Below, one piece after another: positions 3,323 through 57,564 of a DNA stretch of 64,000 bases. Source of the stretch: a bacterium (GTDB lineage: Bacteria > Cyanobacteriota > Vampirovibrionia > Gastranaerophilales > JAILCC01); assembly GCA_024680555.1 (NCBI GenBank), contig JAILCC010000018.1, forward strand, positions 49,174-113,173, written 5' to 3'. The notes beneath the pieces are model-generated. The model was not told the DNA's origin and did not search any database. It saw only the letters and a program-made list of their open reading frames with translations. The position numbers and the translations under genes were made by a program. Numbering within the stretch: position 1 is the first letter of the stretch; every line of letters starts with the position of its first letter.

Positions 3323-3748
3323 TTATGCTTGCATATTGAGCGATGTGCCTTTTTGTCCGCTTGCACCGCCTGCTTGTATGTATTTTTTCTTGAGATCTGA
3401 TTCTACTGAAACTTTGCTTTCTCCTGTTTGTTTGCAAATATCTTTTACAACATCGTCGAATTTCTTTCCATTTGTTGCAAAATCTTGTCCTTTAAATTCT
3501 ACGCTGTTTGGTAATTGGATATCGTTGTTTTTGAAGCCGTTGTTGTAAACATAGTTTATCAAGCTTGATGAATCCATGTTTGCTACATCTGCTTTTTGTT
3601 CTGTTTTTTGTGATTGTGAGTTTGCGAAAATTGAATTTGTAGCACCTGATTTTTGTGCTGCACCCGATTTTTGAGTACTTTGAGTACTCATGATGTCTTT
3701 CATACCACCGATTTTGGTTTTGGATAAAAAGTCTACGCCTACTGCCAT
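3323..3748 (-). CDS. Hypothetical protein, Ser/Gln/Thr-rich low-complexity N-half
   Basis: 141-aa ORF with GAGGAG RBS-like sequence upstream and a hairpin terminator downstream (3268-3293). No recognisable domain. Confidence 0.5.
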   Translation of the reverse strand: MAVGVDFLSKTKIGGMKDIMSTQSTQKSGAAQKSGATNSIFANSQSQKTEQKADVANMDSSSLINYVYNNGFKNNDIQLPNSVEFKGQDFATNGKKFDDVVKDICKQTGESKVSVESDLKKKYIQAGGASGQKGTSLNMQA

Positions 3749-3939
3749 AGGGAATCTCCTCTCTTATAAAATTGTAAATATAGTCATGCTATCTCTCTAT
3801 ACTTCAATAAAAAATTTTATATACTCTTTATTGCTTTTTTCTTGACGTAATATGTAGTTTTGTTAAGAAAAAATTTAACACCCAAATAGCAAAATTTTTT
3901 TTGGGAAACATTATATATAAACAGCAAGAGTGGTTTTTT

Positions 3940-4248
3940 ATGAATATAAATAAAATTTGTTTAAATACAAATTTCGGTGTTCATCTGACGGACAGTGCCA
4001 AAAAAATGATGAAAGATGGCGGTGCTACCGATTTTGAATTGGATACTTTGCCGTGCAAAATGCCGACTGATGCAGTTATTGATATTGATAAAACAAACGG
4101 AAACGCATATATAAAAGGATATTATGCGACATTAAGACTTGAAAAACCGGGACTCACAATGGAAGATGTGGAAAATTTGTGTGAGGCGTACAACATAAAG
4201 AAATATTTTTCCGTAGATTCGGCTGCGGATGCACGTAAATATTTTTAA
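3940..4248 (+). CDS. Hypothetical protein
   Basis: ORF only, no recognisable domain. Start placed at the first ATG (the track start is TTG at 3901). Confidence 0.4.
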   Translation: MNINKICLNTNFGVHLTDSAKKMMKDGGATDFELDTLPCKMPTDAVIDIDKTNGNAYIKGYYATLRLEKPGLTMEDVENLCEAYNIKKYFSVDSAADARKYF

Positions 4249-4316
4249 TGTATTTCTTGCCACGTAGACTGAACATAATGTATATATAAAATTGTAGGGT
4301 ATAGAGAGGCTAAAAA

Positions 4317-4781
4317 ATGCTTATTTTAGGCATAGATCCCGGAATAGCAATAACTGGGTACGGACTGCTGGAATGCAGTGGGGATAGCGTAAAAGTAGTT
4401 GCATCTGGTTCAATTCAAACATCTAAAAGTAAAACCACACAAGAAAGATTGGCGGAATTGTATGCCGATATGATTGAAATTATTAAAACCCACAAACCCG
4501 ACATTGCCTCAATAGAACAGCTTTTTTATTTTAAAAATTTAAAAACGGTTATCCCTGTTGCGCAGGCAAGAGGGGTGATAATTATGGCTCTTGCGCAAAA
4601 TAATGTAGAACTCGCAGAATATACTCCGTTGCAGGTAAAGCAGACTATAACCGGTTTTGGGCGTGCAACAAAAGATGAAGTTAAACAAATGACTGCTATT
4701 GCGCTAAATCAAGAAATGCCAAAGCTCGATGATACGGTAGATGCAATAGCTATTGCATTATGTCATTACAGAAATTTGTGA
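4317..4781 (+). CDS. ruvC: Holliday junction resolvase RuvC
   Basis: 'ILGIDPGIAITGYG' N-terminus with catalytic Asp, and 'DDTVDAIAIALCH' C-terminal acidic motif. Confidence 0.9.
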   Translation: MLILGIDPGIAITGYGLLECSGDSVKVVASGSIQTSKSKTTQERLAELYADMIEIIKTHKPDIASIEQLFYFKNLKTVIPVAQARGVIIMALAQNNVELAEYTPLQVKQTITGFGRATKDEVKQMTAIALNQEMPKLDDTVDAIAIALCHYRNL

Positions 4782-4783
4782 TA

Positions 4784-5830
4784 TTAAACGTTGCGAAAAT
4801 TTTTTAAATTTTCAATTGCTATCTGAATTTTCTGCTTATCATCTTTGAGTTGCTTTTCGTACTCATCCCATTTTACTTCGGGTGTAGGGTATTTTTCTTT
4901 GTTTTCAGGCAGTTTTATTATATCAACTTCTATTAATTTTAGAGCTTCATTATAATCAGCTAAGGCCCCTTCATAGTCTCCGATATTTTCTTTTATGATT
5001 CCCATTTTCTGATAAGTATCGTAAAAATCTCCGATAGAGCTTTCTTTGTTTTTGCTGATATATATATCAAAATCTCTTAATGCCCTTTCATAATCGCCAA
5101 GTTCCAAATACAATGAACCTCTCTCAGAATAAGCATAATCCATGACCTCATCATCGGGTGAACATTCTATTGCTTTATTAATGCAATCAAGCGCTTCTTG
5201 TTTTTTGCCTTCTTGTGAGAAAAGGTCATACTTTCTGTAGTAAGCGGTACTATTACGGTCATTTATTTGCAAAACCTTATCATAATTTTCATGTGCCGCT
5301 TTTATATCTTTAAGTGCTTCATACGCAAGTCCCAAATGTAAATATGCATACTCATTGTCGGGATATATTTCAAGAAGCGCATTACAATCTTCAACAATTT
5401 CTTTATCACTATTCTGTTGATGCCAATTCGCTTCTATTTTTTGTTTGTATATTTCCGCCAATTCATCTTTATCGGTAGCAAGACGCATCGCCGCATATAA
5501 ATCCGTAAGTGCTCCGTCATAATCTTCTATTGAAAAAGAATTTTTAATTTTTGCACTTATAATATATCTTTGTGCGGAAGGCTCCATCTCAATTGCTTTT
5601 GTTATGTTTTCAAGGGCATCATTTTCACGATAATGTTTTAAACAAATGTCTGCCTTTTGGGTAAATTCTTCCGGTGTTTTGGGCTTGAAATTAAACATAT
5701 AATCCAATTCTGACATATAAGTTTTATCAACAGGACTACTAGTGCTCTTAGAATTTTGCCATTTTCCGAGAATAATACCTACAGGTATTGCGACTATCAA
5801 TACACATATAATTTCAAACAAATCATCCAT
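4784..5830 (-). CDS. Membrane-anchored tetratricopeptide-repeat (TPR) protein
   Basis: N-terminal TM helix (ICVLIVAIPVGIILG) followed by repeated 34-aa A/Y/L-pattern TPR units (…YAYLHLGLAYEALKDIKAAHENYDKVLQI…). Confidence 0.8.
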   Translation of the reverse strand: MDDLFEIICVLIVAIPVGIILGKWQNSKSTSSPVDKTYMSELDYMFNFKPKTPEEFTQKADICLKHYRENDALENITKAIEMEPSAQRYIISAKIKNSFSIEDYDGALTDLYAAMRLATDKDELAEIYKQKIEANWHQQNSDKEIVEDCNALLEIYPDNEYAYLHLGLAYEALKDIKAAHENYDKVLQINDRNSTAYYRKYDLFSQEGKKQEALDCINKAIECSPDDEVMDYAYSERGSLYLELGDYERALRDFDIYISKNKESSIGDFYDTYQKMGIIKENIGDYEGALADYNEALKLIEVDIIKLPENKEKYPTPEVKWDEYEKQLKDDKQKIQIAIENLKNFRNV

Positions 5831-5854
5831 ATAAAATCTTTCTTCTTGTTATTT

Positions 5855-8800
5855 TTATATTTTCATTTCAACAAGTGCATGTTTAATTTTTGCAATACAT
5901 GCCTGAGGACTATAATACCATTCTCTTGCAGTAATACGAAGTATTTTAAAGCCGCAGCGCTCTAAGATTTCTTGTTTATAACTCGGGCGAACAGGTTTTT
6001 CGATTTCATCATCAACGCCGTCGCATTCTACGGCAATTTTGTTTTCCCCATCAGAAACGATTAAATCTATTCTTAACCCTGCGGTTTCAAATCCTGAAAT
6101 GATTTCAAGACCTTCTTCAGCGCAAGTTGTTGCAACGGATTGTTCAAAACTGTTGTTGTAATCATAGTCCTGCACCTCAAGTTCGGGAGTATTTTCGTTC
6201 TTTTCTTTTAAATCTTGAATATAGTTCAAAAAGTCACGCAAAAGACCGGATGGCAGGTCTTTTGCCTCTTTTGAACAAAATACAATGAGCTTTTTCCTTG
6301 CACGAGTGATAGCCACGTTAAACAGATTGGCTTTTTGTAAAAACATCAGGCTTTGGTTGTGACTGTTATCCGCAATGGCAAATGAGAGCATCATTATATC
6401 TCTTTCATCACCCTGGAATGTATGTGCCGTACCGATATCAATTTGGTGTTTGCGTACAAATTTGTCGGGAATAATTTGTGATACGGCTTTTTTAATTTGT
6501 TCTACCTGTCCTCTAAACGGTGAAATTATACCGATAGAAACAGGGTTTTTGGGTTTAGTTTCCGCATCCTGTGCAATTATTTCCTGCAATTTTTTTATGA
6601 GTTCTTCGGTTTCGGCAAGGTTCTTTGTCGTGTCTAAATCGACTTTTGCGCCTTTGACCGTAACGAGTTCAATGACATCTTTCAGGTTTGTTTCTTTGTT
6701 CATAATTCGGAGTTTTCCGCCGTAGAATTGGTCGTTGCTGAAGTCAATAATCGGCGGCAGACTTCTGAAGTGTTCGTCCAAAAGTATCGGGCATGTTGAA
6801 TAATAGTTTGCTAAATCAAATACTGAATTTGTCCTAAATCTCCACATCAACTGGTATTTATCAGGAATATTGTATTGCGTAAAGAATGATTGCTCTTTTG
6901 CTTTTTCTAAGAACGAAAGGTGCGGTAATTGCTTGTCATCCCCTACTACAACCGTCTTTTTCGCTCTGTACATAATCGGAAAACAGCTTGCAATATCGCA
7001 TTGAGAAGCCTCATCAATAATTGCAACATCAAACATTCCCGGTTTCAGCGGTAAAGATTCGGAAATTGCAAAGGTAGTAACCGCCCAGCAAGGGAAAGCA
7101 TCCAATAGCGGCTGAAAATCTTCGTCTTCAAGAATTCTGTTTTGAAGATTTTTTTGGCGTGTTACGAGTGCTTTTGCATGCAGCATAAGACGTTGACGCT
7201 TTTCCTGATTTCGAGTCATATCAAGAAGCGCTTTGCGGCGTTTATTTTTCAAAATATCTATCGCAAGTTTTTTCTGCTTGCCTTTTAAGTTTCTTATTTC
7301 TTCAAAAAGTGCGTGTAGATTTCCGATTTTGTTTATTTTATTTTCTATATTTTTTAGTTTGTTGTATAGCGATTTTAGCTCTAATTCTTCGTTGATTTCA
7401 TTTACGGTATCGTGCGTAAATTTGATATTTTGGAGCATCAAACTTTTTTTCAAACGATAATTATATACAAAGTTCAATAACTTATTCCATGCATTCGGGT
7501 TGTTTTGAACATTTTCAATTTTTGACAAGATGGACTTCCCTACGGCGATATCGGCATCGGAAAGTTTTTTGTTAATGTATTCACCTTGAATTTTTGCGGC
7601 TTGGGCTTTATATTCTTCAAGTACGCAGAACCATTCATGTTCAAGCTTTATAATGTTGTCGCATTTTTTCTCTGTTTCTTTTATATTTTTCAGCAAGTTT
7701 TTCATATCATCAATATCTGCAAATAACGCACTTTCAAAGCCTGTATCAAAATCTTGATTATTTGATAGCATTTCTTGTAATTCGTGTTGCAATTGTCTTT
7801 GATAGTTTGCACGTCCTGCCCTCATAACAAGGTGCGGTGCGCCAAAGCCGTTTAGCCTGTCTGCTACAACATCTACGGCTTTATCCATTCTTGAAGCAAA
7901 CAAAACTGTTTTTCCTGTAGCAATTAAGTGAGTAATCAAGTTAACAATGGTTTGAGATTTACCTGTTCCCGGAGGTCCGAAAACCGTTACAAGGGTGTTA
8001 TCTTCTACTGCTTTTAATACGTTTTGTTGCGATTCACTTAATGATAAAGGTGTTATAGGATAAAAGTCTTCATCATTTCCGGCGGTAATTTTAACCTTTA
8101 CTCCGGTAAATTCATCGTTGATTGGTTTTAAAGATGTTTCTCTGAAAACACCCGAGGGCTTTTCCGACATTTGCGTTAATTCGTGCAAAACTCCTGCCGT
8201 AACAGGCGGACGTTTTGTCAAAATTACTGCGCTTTTGTTGGTTATGCCTATTTCACTGTCTGGTGTTGGCGGAATTTTGTCAAAAAAGTCTGCGCAGTCC
8301 GTAACGTCGAGTTCCGGAATAATAGATTTTATGGTGGTCAAAAAGATTTGCATCTTTTCTTTTGTTATCGGATAATCCGGCACAACGTCAAGAAGTCCGC
8401 AAAACAGGTTTTCTGCCTGGTCTTCATCTTTATATTCCATAAGTGCTGACAGAGCACCGGTATTTAGTGAAAAATTTTCTTCCGTTAAAATTAAGGCAAG
8501 GTTTGTTCCGCTGCGTTCAAGTTTGCAAGGAATATAAAGAAGCGGTGTCAAAAACTCCGGTGCTGATTTTCTTTTGCCTGATTTTCCTTCAAGGAACAAA
8601 AATCCGAAAATCATATACTTGTCTTTTTGACTTGTATCGCATTGAACCATCATTTCAGTCAGAGAGTTGTCCGAGCCGTCAAGTCTGAGCGGTGCATTTG
8701 GACTGATTAGCATGCCTGCGCCGCTTTCTAAAAATACCCATTTGTTGTCCTTGTCGCTGGCAAGGTTTCTGAAAGTTGAACTTTTAACTTCTTCTCTGAT

Positions 8801-54182: not shown

Positions 54183-54292
54183 TTAACCTAACTCCTCTAA
54201 GTACAAATATTTTAGCATAAAAAATATGAAAGTTTGTATATTAGTTTTTATGCACAACAATATTATGTGATAAGATTATAGTGTAAAAGCAA

Positions 54293-54379
54293 GGAGAAGT
54301 GTCCGAGCGGTTTAAGGTGACGACCTCGAAAGTCGTTGTAGGGGTGACTCTACCGTGGGTTCGAATCCCACCTTCTCCG
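54293..54379 (+). tRNA. tRNA-Ser (anticodon CGA), type II with long variable arm
   Basis: Hand fold: acceptor GGAGAAG/CTTCTCC, anticodon stem ACGAC/GTCGT with loop CTCGAAA, T-arm GTGGG-TTCGAAT-CCCAC. No encoded CCA. Confidence 0.9.
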
Positions 54380-54392
54380 AATTAAAATATAG

Positions 54393-54425
54393 TAAAAAAA
54401 GACCACCGTTGCCGATGGTCTTTTA
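54393..54425. terminator. Bidirectional hairpin between convergent tRNA-Ser and tRNA-Pro
   Basis: Stem AGACCACCG/CGATGGTCT (one mismatch) flanked by an A7 run and a T4 run. Confidence 0.7.
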
Positions 54426-54427
54426 AA

Positions 54428-54504
54428 TGGTCGGAACGACAGGATTTGAACCTGCGACCCCCACCACCCCAAGGTGGTGCGCTACCAAGCTGCGCTACGT
54501 CCCG
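54428..54504 (-). tRNA. tRNA-Pro (anticodon GGG), CCA encoded
   Basis: Reverse complement: CGGGACG TA GCGC AGCTTGGTA GCGC A CCACC TTGGGGT GGTGG GGGTC GCAGG TTCAAAT CCTGT CGTTCCG A CCA. Confidence 0.9.
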
Positions 54505-54556
54505 ATATAATTTTATTATACTATCATTATGAAATTTTCAAACATTACTCTGCTTT

Positions 54557-54623
54557 ACCAAGGTGGTGCTACCTCTCGAAAAACGATACTTAATCGTTTT
54601 TCTCGGCAGAGTCAAGCTGCGCT
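54557..54623 (-). pseudogene. tRNA-Pro 5'-half fragment split by a 40-nt hairpin-containing insert
   Basis: ACCAAGGTGGTGCTACC (54557-54573) and AAGCTGCGCT (54614-54623) match tRNA-Pro 54468-54497. The insert carries a perfect 10-bp hairpin GAAAAACGAT/ATCGTTTTTC. Confidence 0.55.
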
Positions 54624-54718
54624 TTCTACCATTTATACATATTTATTTTTCAACTGTACCCCGCAGGGCGGTGCTACGCACGTAAGTATAATACCATAAC
54701 AAGACTTTATTGCAAGAT

Positions 54719-55960
54719 TTAAAATGTATCGCTTCTCCTCAACGACAAAACATATATTTTTTTTAAACGTTCGATATATGCATCTTGTGCTTTTATTTGT
54801 TCGGGAGAAACTCCTTGAGCTATCAATTTTCTTTTGAGTTGTTCGGCATCAACTAAAAACCACCTTACTCTTGCGGGCGGTTCGTTAAGAAGAATCTCCT
54901 CAATTCTTTTCGCTTTATTATGCTTTTTATGTCCGACTTTTTGTAGAGTCGGAGAGGCTTGTACTTGGGGAGCTGTTCCCCTTTTGAATGGGTTATATCT
55001 ATTCAAATTTAAAATTCTTTTGCCGTGAGTTGCTTCAGCAACCAGACGTTGAATAATTTGGGGATAATCACCCTGTCCGTTCAAATGTCCATTTGCTAAG
55101 CAGGTTATAATTTTGTCTAGCTGCCTTTGAATGTTGGAATACATGTTTGGAAACAGGTAAAATAAACTTGAAAATGGTGCATATTCACTTGCTGTTGCGC
55201 ATGGTCGGCAAACAAAAATCCCGTGCTCGTCTTTTGGATTTATAAGTTTTTTCGTCGGAGTAACAGAATTTAAAAGTTCTTGCATAATATGGGCATCAGA
55301 TTTGCCTGCCATCTGTAAAATCGCAAAATCAGGACAGGCGGGGAATGTCTGGAATTTTTTAGTGCATTCTTGTATTGTTGCTGTTGCATCTATACCTGCT
55401 TCGGATTGAAAATCAGCGTAATTTTTTGCTATCAAATATTTTTTTACTTTATCCGGAAAATTTCCTATGCTGATATTTACGGCTTTTTTATGAAACTCAG
55501 CCAGTTTTTCTTTTTGCTCGGGGGTAAGTTTAAGATTTTCCTCCATAAATTCAAATATCTGCTTGTTGGCAATATAGCCTTTTTCGTAGTATTCACGGCT
55601 TTTTTGCAGGTGGTGAGTCATGACTTCAGGCTTGGCAAATATTTCGCCGAAGCTTTTATCGGGGTACTTTCCGGCATAAATTTCCATCGTTGAAAGCAAA
55701 TCGGTATTATTGGGTTTTTGGAAATATACAGCATCAATATAGCGAGAGATGCTTTGCCTTGCGGGCATGCTCGTGTCCTGTCTGCCAAAACGGCTAACAA
55801 AGTTATCAATTTCTCCCATTCTGTACATAGGTATGCCGCACATGGCGCATCTGAGCCCTGCAAGATTGGTGAATTGTATAACTCTATGTCCGAATGTATT
55901 TTTTGTTACCCCTAATATTTCCATACTCATTTTAAATATCATAAAAAAAATTTTTGACAT
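54719..55960 (-). CDS. Orphan hypothetical protein (about 413 aa; start uncertain)
   Basis: Long uninterrupted ORF with two distant CxxC pairs (CAMC, CRPC) and a basic C-terminal region. No recognisable domain. The track's N-terminal 24 codons run into the tRNA-fragment repeat, so I trimmed to ATG 55960. No clear RBS at any candidate start. Confidence 0.55.
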   Translation of the reverse strand: MSKIFFMIFKMSMEILGVTKNTFGHRVIQFTNLAGLRCAMCGIPMYRMGEIDNFVSRFGRQDTSMPARQSISRYIDAVYFQKPNNTDLLSTMEIYAGKYPDKSFGEIFAKPEVMTHHLQKSREYYEKGYIANKQIFEFMEENLKLTPEQKEKLAEFHKKAVNISIGNFPDKVKKYLIAKNYADFQSEAGIDATATIQECTKKFQTFPACPDFAILQMAGKSDAHIMQELLNSVTPTKKLINPKDEHGIFVCRPCATASEYAPFSSLFYLFPNMYSNIQRQLDKIITCLANGHLNGQGDYPQIIQRLVAEATHGKRILNLNRYNPFKRGTAPQVQASPTLQKVGHKKHNKAKRIEEILLNEPPARVRWFLVDAEQLKRKLIAQGVSPEQIKAQDAYIERLKKIYVLSLRRSDTF

Positions 55961-56006
55961 AACGCTTGTATTGTTTGTATTTTTACGATACATTAAAAAC
56001 AGTTTA

Positions 56007-56277
56007 GGGTGATTAGCGCCAAACCGGAGCAAAGCGGAGGTATATAGATTAAACCAACTGCGCTACAGAAAATAAAATTTGAAAACAGAATAATCGGGCG
56101 ATTAGCGCCAAACCGGAGCGCAGCGGAGGTATTTAGATTAAACCAACTGCGCGAGCGATAAATGAAAAATTTTGATAATTTAATATGGGCGATTAGCGCC
56201 AAACCGAAGCGCAGCGGAGGTATTTAGATTAAACCAACTGCGCGAGCGATAAATGAAGAATTTTGATAATTTAATAT
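56007..56277 (+). repeat. Three tandem units (89, 91 and 91 bp), each starting with the first 13 nt of tRNA-Val, immediately upstream of the intact gene
   Basis: Unit starts at 56007, 56096 and 56187; the tRNA starts at 56278. Each 57-nt core = GGG(C/T)GATTAGCGC + 32 nt + AACCAACTGCGC (an inverted copy of tRNA nt 10-21). An AT-rich spacer carries GATAAT 7 nt before the next unit. Confidence 0.9.
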
Positions 56278-56353
56278 GGGCGATTAGCGCAGTTGGTAGC
56301 GCATCTGAATGACATTCAGGGGGTCACAGGTTCGAGCCCTGTATCGCCCACCA
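56278..56353 (+). tRNA. tRNA-Val (anticodon GAC), CCA encoded
   Basis: Hand fold: GGGCGAT TA GCGC AGTTGGTA GCGC A TCTGA ATGACAT TCAGG GGGTC ACAGG TTCGAGC CCTGT ATCGCCC A CCA. Confidence 0.9.
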
Positions 56354-56358
56354 TATTA

Positions 56359-56386
56359 AAGAGGGTTAAGTACCCTCTTTTTTTAT
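56359..56386 (+). terminator. tRNA-Val intrinsic terminator
   Basis: Stem AAGAGGG/CCCTCTT, 7-nt loop, T7 run. Confidence 0.85.
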
Positions 56387-56526
56387 TGAAAATGCTCGAA
56401 CCTGTGACCAAAATGCGGACAAGCCGCATTCCCTCACAAGTTCGGGAAGTCGAGCCACGCCCCTCGCACAAATTTTTGCTATTTTTTTTAAAAAAAGATA
56501 TAATTCAAGCAAATGGAGTGAGAATT

Positions 56527-57564
56527 ATGTTTGAATATTTTAAATTTTCTTTTATTACAACTGTAGTCGGACTTACGGCAGCATATTTTTGGGGAAACTA
56601 CAGAGTCCCTGGGTCAGGATTTATGGCTTTGTTTATCGTATTTGTGCTTGCCGTATTGGAAACCAGTTTATCGTTTGATAATGCAGTTATAAATGCGACT
56701 AAACTTGAAAAAATGTCCAAAGAATGGGAGCGCAGATTTTTGACTTGGGGCATAATAATAGCCGTATTTGGTATGAGATTACTATTCCCGATTTCAATTG
56801 TTTCTATTTTTGCAAATCTGCCGTTTTGGGAAACTGCAAAAATTACGCTTACGGATGTTGATAAATATACATACTACCTTCACCAAACACATGCACCTGT
56901 ATTATTTTTCGGCGCTGCATTCCTTTTGATGTTATTTTTCCATTATTTCTTTGATGAAAAAAAGGAAAATCATTGGATAAAATGGCTTGAAAAACCTTTG
57001 TCGCATTTGGGACATATCCAAGGCATAGAAACCGCTTTGACTCTTATAACCATTTATATTTTTCAAAGCATGCTTCCTGCCGAAAGTAAACTCCCTGTAG
57101 TGTTGGCGGCAATTAACGGTGTAGTGTTGTATTTGCTTGTACATGGCTTGAGCGAATGGATGAATTCGCACCAGCCCAAGGCTGAAAACTCCGCTATTAA
57201 ACAAAGTTTCAAAGCCGGTTTGGTGTCATTTTTATACCTTGAATTGATTGATGCATCATTTTCTTTAGATGGTGTGCTTGGCGCATTTGCATTGAGCAAA
57301 GACATTATAATTATTACTTTGGGGTTGGCTATCGGCGCAATGTTCGTCCGCTCGTTTACTATTATGCTTGTAGAAAAGAAAACCCTGAAACAATATGTAT
57401 ATCTTGAAAACGGTGCGCACTGGGCAATTGGAGTCTTGGCATTTATAATGTTTTATTCAACCCTGCAGGAAGTTCCCGAGGTCGTAACAGGATTAGCAGG
57501 GCTTGTTTTGATTGTCTGGTCGTTTATTTCTTCAATGATAGAAAACAAAAAGGTAAAAGAATAG
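56527..57564 (+). CDS. TerC/DUF475-family integral membrane protein
   Basis: 'VLAVLETSLSFDNAVINA' and a second 'LELIDASFSLDGVLGAFA' repeat, multiple TM helices. Start at the ATG after the GGAG RBS (the track ORF's N-terminus reads through tRNA-Val). Confidence 0.8.
   Translation: MFEYFKFSFITTVVGLTAAYFWGNYRVPGSGFMALFIVFVLAVLETSLSFDNAVINATKLEKMSKEWERRFLTWGIIIAVFGMRLLFPISIVSIFANLPFWETAKITLTDVDKYTYYLHQTHAPVLFFGAAFLLMLFFHYFFDEKKENHWIKWLEKPLSHLGHIQGIETALTLITIYIFQSMLPAESKLPVVLAAINGVVLYLLVHGLSEWMNSHQPKAENSAIKQSFKAGLVSFLYLELIDASFSLDGVLGAFALSKDIIIITLGLAIGAMFVRSFTIMLVEKKTLKQYVYLENGAHWAIGVLAFIMFYSTLQEVPEVVTGLAGLVLIVWSFISSMIENKKVKE

Follow-up and report, generated by a model that had tools for sequence, protein, structure and literature searches.

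In bacteria, the amount of a tRNA is usually attributed to its transcription and to general processing enzymes. Still, sequence that is co-transcribed with a tRNA can have a role of its own, as in the glyW-cysT-leuZ operon of Escherichia coli, where the 3′ external transcribed spacer is an sRNA sponge. Archaea and red algae have split and permuted tRNA genes, in which the pieces of a tRNA are encoded apart and joined via complementary flanks; bacteria, to our knowledge, have no bulge-helix-bulge splicing endonuclease. In type III toxin-antitoxin systems, the RNA antitoxin is encoded by structured units that are repeated in a short tandem array under one promoter. We know of no natural counterpart of RNase P riboswitches that sequester a leader. 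Synthetic RNase P riboswitches sequester the 5′ leader of a pre-tRNA and are both engineered and ligand-dependent (PMC7897497). Finally, integrative elements classically leave partial tRNA copies beside tRNA genes (PMC9897764).

The locus that we describe here shares something with each of these systems. It lies in a gut Gastranaerophilales genome, of which a stretch of 64,000 nucleotides (hereafter, the window) was analyzed. Directly upstream of an intact tRNA-Val(GAC) gene, positions 56007–56277 form a tandem array of three units of 89, 91, and 91 bp, each consisting of tRNA nt 1–13 (the stub proper), a 44-nt core, and an AT-rich spacer (Table 1). Tandem Repeats Finder reported a period of 91 nt with 3.1 copies at 56007–56290 (90% matches, score 431). 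The 13-mer GGG(C/T)GATTAGCGC is present in four copies at spacings of 89, 91, and 91 nt, the fourth copy being the start of tRNA-Val itself. Similarly, GGGCGATTAGCGC occurs four times (one occurrence reads GGGTG...), a number of matches reached by 0 of 100 shuffles, and the core occurs three times, with 3, 0, and 1 mismatches, where 0 occurrences are expected. Along with the repeat search and the ARAGORN and Rfam calls for the tRNA, these results bear out the original prediction of a three-unit array in register with tRNA-Val. The array does not have the makeup of a CRISPR array, as the whole 91-bp unit repeats, spacers included, and there are no unique spacers between repeats. Unit 3 is 98% identical to unit 2 across its whole length, including the spacer, and unit 1 is 69% identical in the ungapped comparison of the repeat search.

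In its final 11 nt, the core is antisense to the D-arm of tRNA-Val. This inverted copy had been described as covering tRNA nt 10–21; in units 2 and 3, it is exact for nt 10–20 (11 nt), and the twelfth base is a mismatch. In unit 1, the exact match extends over nt 8–20 (13 nt).

Table 1. Features of the tRNA-Val(GAC) and tRNA-Pro(GGG) loci in the window (positions are those of the window).
Feature	Coordinates	Strand	Description
tRNA-Pro(GGG)	54428..54504	-	Divergent from tRNA-Val; D-arm almost the same; ARAGORN, Rfam
tRNA-Pro leader with 5′-half fragments	54558..54681	-	Copy of nt 9–19 at 54613–54623; copy of nt 25–36 at 54558–54569
413-aa orphan gene	54719..55960	-	Between the two stub-bearing tRNA genes
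Promoter-like site	55954..55983	+	TTGACA, 18-nt spacer, TATTTT; upstream of the array; consensus scan
Unit 1	56007..56095	+	Stub GGGTGATTAGCGC 56007–56019; core 56020–56063; spacer 56064–56095; older copy
Unit 2	56096..56186	+	Stub 56096–56108; core 56109–56152; spacer 56153–56186
Unit 3	56187..56277	+	Stub 56187–56199; core 56200–56243; spacer 56244–56277; recent copy
tRNA-Val(GAC)	56278..56353	+	Intact, CCA encoded; ARAGORN; Rfam tRNA model, 65 bits
Intrinsic terminator of tRNA-Val	56358..56380	+	Predicted
3′ counterpart unit	56394..56456	+	Beyond the tRNA-Val terminator; mirror image of the 5′ unit

For comparison, we used related contigs that were reached via two proteins encoded near the array (a 413-aa orphan and a DUF475 protein) and via a pattern scan for the core; these are referred to as L001, L002, L004, and L006/L007. 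Several familiar identities of the element were considered and rejected. Searches of Rfam 15 with E values up to 10 (window, L004, and L007) returned weak chance matches far below the gathering scores, in line with the earlier view that no described family has this shape. A tRNA or tRNA pseudogene within the stubs was rejected because there was no match to RF00005 at E values up to 10, and ARAGORN found no hidden tRNA on either strand of the stubs even with thresholds lowered to 60% and in mitochondrial mode. The overall similarity of the stub to inverted tRNA-Val is significant, but it is owed to both extremities; a central stretch of 33 nt in the core is dissimilar (847 of 2000 shuffles score as well), and the whole stub is thus not an inverted degenerate tRNA-Val. 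A small open reading frame was rejected because frames differ between lineages (by eye) and the L004 core contains a 1-nt insertion. An invertible promoter was rejected as well, given inverted repeats of 11–13 nt lying 43 nt apart, no recombinase, and the same orientation in five lineages. Lastly, the covariance model of the stub found no further copies of the element in 174 kb comprising the window and related loci, which argues against a dispersed repeat family.

The 57-nt element made up of the 13-nt stub and the 44-nt core is found upstream of tRNA-Val(GAC) in four other Gastranaerophilales lineages, in one or two copies each. There is one copy in L001, one in L002, two in L004 (a Candidatus Gastranaerophilales MAG), and one somewhat degenerate copy in L006/L007, compared to three in the window, all copy numbers, including the three 5′ units here, being as assembled in scaffolds. 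Copy number therefore varies from 1 to 3 across five lineages, which answers the earlier suggestion to compare the locus among relatives. The DUF475 homologues also carry Gastranaerophilales names. Judging from this distribution, the element is older than the split of at least five Gastranaerophilales lineages. As a side observation, the window tRNA-Val encodes its 3′ CCA (56351–56353, …GCCCACCA), and the tRNA-Val genes of L001, L002, L004, and L007 do not (…GCCCAAAT, …GCCCAAGT).

Across eight aligned copies, 43 of the 57 positions are invariant, as are about 41 of 44 within the core. Variation within the core maps to loop positions of a small hairpin predicted there, and one of these positions also differs in length. 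The D-arm-like GCGC/GCGC stem that had been ascribed to every unit is not kept in unit 1 (GCAA) or in relatives (GCTT in L001, GCAG in L004). The 13-nt sense part is less conserved than the core: it reads AGGCGATTAGC- in L007, and GGGC-ATTAGCGC and ...GCAC in L004. Given this damage to the sense copy in two lineages, the 5′ end of the tRNA need not be mimicked exactly. In every lineage, by comparison, the antisense end matches tRNA nt 10–20 without error.

The gene adjoining the locus gives a measure of how far these genomes have diverged. Its DUF475 protein is 86–88% identical among relatives, and its fourfold-degenerate sites are only 36–37% identical (window, L001, and L007), meaning that neutral sites are saturated. 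A near-invariant core despite such saturation indicates that the core is kept by purifying selection, and it speaks against the possibility, raised earlier, that the units are mere slippage debris. In a pattern scan covering one genome per species, the core was present in 1 of 185,579 species genomes, that of L004, at a single locus. A metagenome scan returned a sole match, by chance, in a high-GC kinase gene, and homologues of DUF475 and cas9 were mostly found in other contexts without tRNA-Val. The element is thus lineage-specific, tRNA-derived, and under selection. On these comparisons, we regard it as a lineage-restricted new variant of tRNA-linked non-coding sequence with a putative function.

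The spacers tell a more recent history. They are alike within genomes (the two L004 units are also 98% identical to each other) and poorly conserved between genomes, a pattern that points to unequal crossing-over or slippage. From this comparison of units and spacers, one copy probably became three in the window by either process. Exchange would have taken place between the repeated 13-nt-plus-flank segments, that is, the tRNA 5′ segment and its flank, in two amplification steps, of which the one seen in unit 1 is old and the one seen in units 2 and 3 is recent. Serial slippage, as first proposed, is therefore a good explanation of the amplification, given the near-identity of units 2 and 3, spacers included, and the one or two copies carried by relatives.

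A second set of tRNA-derived sequence lies beyond the terminator. The 3′ counterpart unit opens with an inverted copy of tRNA nt 45–60 (56394–56409, 16 of 16 matching), followed by hairpin 1, AATGCGGACAAGCCGCATT (56412–56430), and hairpin 2, TTCCC...GGGAA (56429–56448), whose loop is variable. It closes with TCGAGCC (56450–56456), the start of a direct copy running from the T loop to the 3′ end. In L001 and L006/L007, where alignment shows the unit to be conserved, this direct copy continues through the 3′ end and the terminator, and the unit, terminator included, occurs in tandem copies. These 3′ arrays contain stretches of N in the scaffolds (L001, 5482–5581; L006, 463–562), indicating that assemblers could not resolve them. 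Hairpin 1 shows one compensatory change from G-C to A-U, but 49 of 500 shuffles score as high, making this weak evidence. Moreover, the unit sits behind a strong terminator, and a role as RNA would need read-through. The locus shares with split and permuted tRNA genes the presence of separate tRNA pieces and complementary flanks. However, the tRNA gene here is intact, and the 5′ and 3′ units are not complementary to each other.

An earlier suggestion was to look for other tRNAs with 5′ stubs. When each tRNA was compared with its own flanks by BLAST, significant flank copies were found for tRNA-Val and tRNA-Pro(GGG) and none for tRNA-Trp, Ser, Ala, or Leu. tRNA-Pro(GGG) does carry comparable 5′ fragments. 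In its leader, the copies of nt 9–19 and nt 25–36 are split by a conserved 39-nt hairpin insertion (D-loop), and a degenerate start, GTGCGTAGCAC, lies at 54671–54681. The same hairpin-bearing Pro stub is found in L001 (7316–7560), together with a second stub that has an inverted D-arm. In L007 (88–149), the Pro stub is laid out like the Val stub, with a Pro-specific antisense D-arm (AACCAAGCTGCGC). It scores only 13 bits against the covariance model of the Val stub, compared to 91 bits for unit 2 of the window; unit 3 is also matched by this model.

We note two further arrangements around these genes. In L007 (88–298), the Pro and Val stubs are inverted copies lying 91 bp apart and sharing GGT(T)AT.TAGATT..ACCAA(G)CTGCGC. 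As a pair, they make up a long inverted repeat, hairpin-like in layout, in the interval that separates the divergent tRNA genes. In the window (54293–54504), tRNA-Ser(CGA) and tRNA-Pro(GGG) converge on a common hairpin terminator (54397–54424), and the A and T runs on its two sides suggest that it is bidirectional.

The presence of copies at both ends of tRNA-Val raises the question of whether they have any function as RNA. The element could be a by-product of recombination: replication would have switched template at short palindromic stems in tRNA genes, which are highly transcribed, and the resulting duplication-inversion-duplication structures would then have been homogenized and amplified by unequal crossing-over and gene conversion. 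This account, which we consider unlikely, would explain why tRNA-Val has, at either end, a direct copy of that end together with an inverted copy of the internal segment next to it. It also fits the occurrence of the pattern at tRNA-Pro, which has the same GCGC D-stem, but not at tRNA-Trp, Ser, Ala, or Leu, as well as the assembly gaps inside the 3′ arrays. Homogenization is indeed ongoing in L001, where flanks are identical within the genome: the stub and the tRNA have a further 27 upstream bases in common, and whole terminators are the same. The tRNA-like ends could be kept identical by gene conversion from the tRNA, without selection. However, the central 33 nt of the core have no significant similarity to the tRNA, and for them there is no gene-conversion donor. 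That this part is nearly invariant across lineages with saturated neutral sites, and that boundaries are identical in five lineages, both speak against a by-product. As to how the arrangement arose, the duplication-inversion-duplication layout at both gene ends leads us to speculate that it began as a replication template switch at the tRNA's own stems.

The genes next to the array vary. Upstream of the stubs lies the 413-aa orphan gene in the window, L001, and L002, cas9-cas1 in L004, and no gene in L006/L007. The 413-aa protein matches a hypothetical protein of an unclassified MAG at full identity, has only three homologues (about 51% identity) among 5.8 billion proteins, has no relative in Pfam, NCBIfam, or PDB, and gave a poor, all-helical AlphaFold model (pLDDT 53). 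Without a family, a solved relative, or a good model, it was rejected as a recombinase or binding partner of the element, and its homologues have no recombinase features. We conclude that the 413-aa gene is variable cargo and separate from the element. The gene is also present in L003, in another context. In L004, the gene divergent from the stubs encodes a 1030-aa Cas9 and is followed by Cas1 (3940–7919); the interval between cas9 and the stubs (3700–3940) contains a promoter and a terminator hairpin and could be a tracrRNA.

Such variable neighbors, along with a direct repeat of part of a tRNA gene beside the intact gene, are also seen at att-site duplications (PMC9897764). The copies could accordingly be scars of att sites, or a cis-mobilizable miniature element, left by repeated integration through a tRNA-targeting recombinase that crosses over in the D-arm (5′) and in the T loop (3′). 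The partial tRNA copies do resemble the classic footprint of integrative elements (PMC9897764), gene content upstream of the stubs differs among lineages, and the cas9 orthologues of other genomes are located elsewhere, not beside tRNA-Val. Even so, we find this explanation quite improbable. No integrase occurs in any locus examined, the neighbors being the 413-aa orphan, DUF475, and, in L004, cas9, and the homologues of the 413-aa protein offer no recombinase in its place. The stub-tRNA repeats do not flank the variable cargo, which is located beyond them, and what the repeats enclose is just 78 bp of core and spacer with the same ends in five lineages. In addition, the core and the 3′ unit are absent from 2.9 million viral contigs in three pattern scans, a result on which a phage or element origin was rejected, and the sole species genome holding the core has it at a single locus. 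Unlike att-site duplications, the locus has a copied 5′ end as well as a copied 3′ end, each unit includes an inverted tRNA segment, and the non-tRNA core is under purifying selection. The original prediction that this is not a 3′-end att duplication thus stands, whereas its suggestion of scars from a 5′-targeting element does not, as there is no cargo between stub and tRNA, the boundaries are shared by five lineages, and no viral copy was found.

If the element is not a scar of integration, its position relative to transcription becomes important. The promoter-like site upstream of the array agrees with the consensus at 10 of 12 positions and ranks first among + strand sites in 54200–56700; it is likely the start of a transcript containing the stubs and tRNA-Val. 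Comparable −35/−10 pairs are seen by eye upstream of the first stub in L001, L002, L004, and L007. The consensus scan found no such pair inside the units, and no terminator lies between the stubs and tRNA-Val. With the sole consensus promoter upstream of the whole array and no intervening terminator, the stubs are probably the 5′ leader of pre-tRNA-Val rather than separate genes. As would be expected of a leader, the element is on the same strand as the tRNA, between the promoter-like site and the gene, and is conserved beyond neutral expectation.

This organization differs from the one proposed originally, in which each stub had its own promoter, with GATAAT placed 7 nt before every GGGCG. 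The motif is present before unit 3 and before the tRNA, but it is missing before units 1 and 2, which are preceded by ...AACAGTTTA and ...AGAATAATC; that is, it occurs at two of four start points. Each unit would then be a small gene with its own −10 box, yielding decoy RNAs of 60–90 nt that begin like tRNA-Val. The two GATAAT motifs that are in place agree with such genes, as do the tRNA-Pro stubs of L001, each of which follows a good copy of the tRNA-Pro promoter (TTGAAA, 16-nt spacer, TAAAAT), and the upstream promoter of L004, which would initiate at about the first base of stub 1. We nevertheless give little credence to separate genes. Not only do the Val units lack an internal −35/−10 pair and half of the expected GATAAT motifs, but the spacers of relatives have no promoter in common, and, with no terminator between units, any such transcripts would continue into the tRNA.

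As a candidate leader, the element resembles two of the systems introduced above. Similar to the glyW-cysT-leuZ spacer, it would be non-tRNA sequence that is co-transcribed with a tRNA (its transcription being inferred) and conserved for a function of its own. However, that spacer pairs with other small RNAs, whereas the element here complements its cognate tRNA and has a sense copy of the 5′ end. Similar to the antitoxins of type III systems, it is a short tandem array downstream of one promoter, here a predicted one, but the array is not followed by a toxin gene, and its units derive from a tRNA and are single in most lineages.

We then considered how such a leader would fold. The stub alone folds no better than shuffled sequence on the + strand (z about −1), but the precursor from stub to tRNA folds far better than shuffles (L002, z = −7.1). 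In the RNAalifold consensus for five lineages, stub nt 1–7 pair with tRNA nt 66–72, stub nt 10–13 pair with tRNA nt 22–25, and the antisense end pairs with tRNA nt 10–20, which leaves a small core hairpin with the variable positions in its loops. Compared with the best fold in which the cloverleaf was enforced, the leader:tRNA fold gains 7.6–13.5 kcal/mol in stability in all five lineages, in nearest-neighbor energies that leave out tRNA tertiary structure and modifications. Sequence changes in L001 also agree with pairing to the tRNA: its tRNA-Val departs from that of the window by A9G and by a paired T-stem change, G52A/C62T, and corresponding bases are present in the L001 stub, in its two antisense T-arm copies, and in its two direct 3′ copies. 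Covariation was found in 0 of 38 pairs. Both pairing partners are invariant at these positions, so the argument for RNA structure comes from conservation. Folding the core and looking for covariation, as had been advised, thus returned a predicted hairpin in the consensus but no covarying pairs, and no stability of the stub itself above that of shuffles.

Conserved sequence without covariation is also what a DNA-level protein-binding site would show, whether it served a regulator of tRNA-Val or of the divergent promoter or acted as iterons, with more units giving more binding. Tandem repetition and a position within 50–300 bp of divergent promoters are likewise in keeping with such a site. Nonetheless, we consider a binding site very unlikely. 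A contiguous 44-nt block whose variable positions fit loops would make a long operator, the position of the element is downstream of the promoter rather than upstream, and the element is single-copy in most lineages. Furthermore, it is kept whatever the upstream gene, and thus does not serve the 413-aa gene. For the same reason, the iterons shared with that gene that were first suggested are not supported, as the element persists in L004, where cas9 takes its place, and in L006/L007, where no gene does.

We therefore return to the leader. Placed between the operon promoter and the tRNA, the element would be transcribed as the 5′ leader of the pre-tRNA, and its antisense end would capture the D-arm region as it emerges. 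In the acceptor stem and D-stem, the sense copy could then substitute for the tRNA's own 5′ strand, and the resulting alternative fold would compete with the cloverleaf. By this route, the leader may influence in cis how pre-tRNA-Val folds, how accessible it is to RNase P, or how stable it is. The leader position, the exact complementarity to the cognate D-arm for both Val and Pro, and the consistent energy advantage point to this mechanism. We propose it tentatively, with somewhat less than even confidence. Among the possibilities offered originally, a regulatory RNA is the best reading in light of purifying selection on the core, and a regulatory role is plausible. In synthetic RNase P riboswitches, leader structure controls RNase P access, as in the mechanism proposed here (PMC7897497). 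Those devices are engineered and ligand-dependent (PMC7897497), whereas the element at this locus is natural, with a proposed role that invokes no ligand or switch.

A broader version of this mechanism would include both ends of the gene and both tRNAs. The sense copies of the ends and the antisense copies of the D- and T-arms would together make up an “anti-tRNA” control module that holds pre-tRNA-Val and, in a related form, pre-tRNA-Pro in an alternative fold. Such a module would gate how two G34 isoacceptors are processed by RNase P, or how stable they are, and its copy number would be tunable by slippage. We regard this version as doubtful, but if true, it would constitute a new class of cis-regulation of bacterial tRNA maturation.

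If the leader does outcompete the cloverleaf, the locus would be a natural example of tRNA-specific maturation control, which has so far only been engineered. Even if the element is neutral, the locus shows that duplication-inversion structures can build up at both ends of tRNA genes with no integrase involved, which bears on the annotation of tRNA fragments and on the use of such fragments as markers of genomic islands. In either case, the element is a concrete, testable candidate RNA element in the uncultured Gastranaerophilales.
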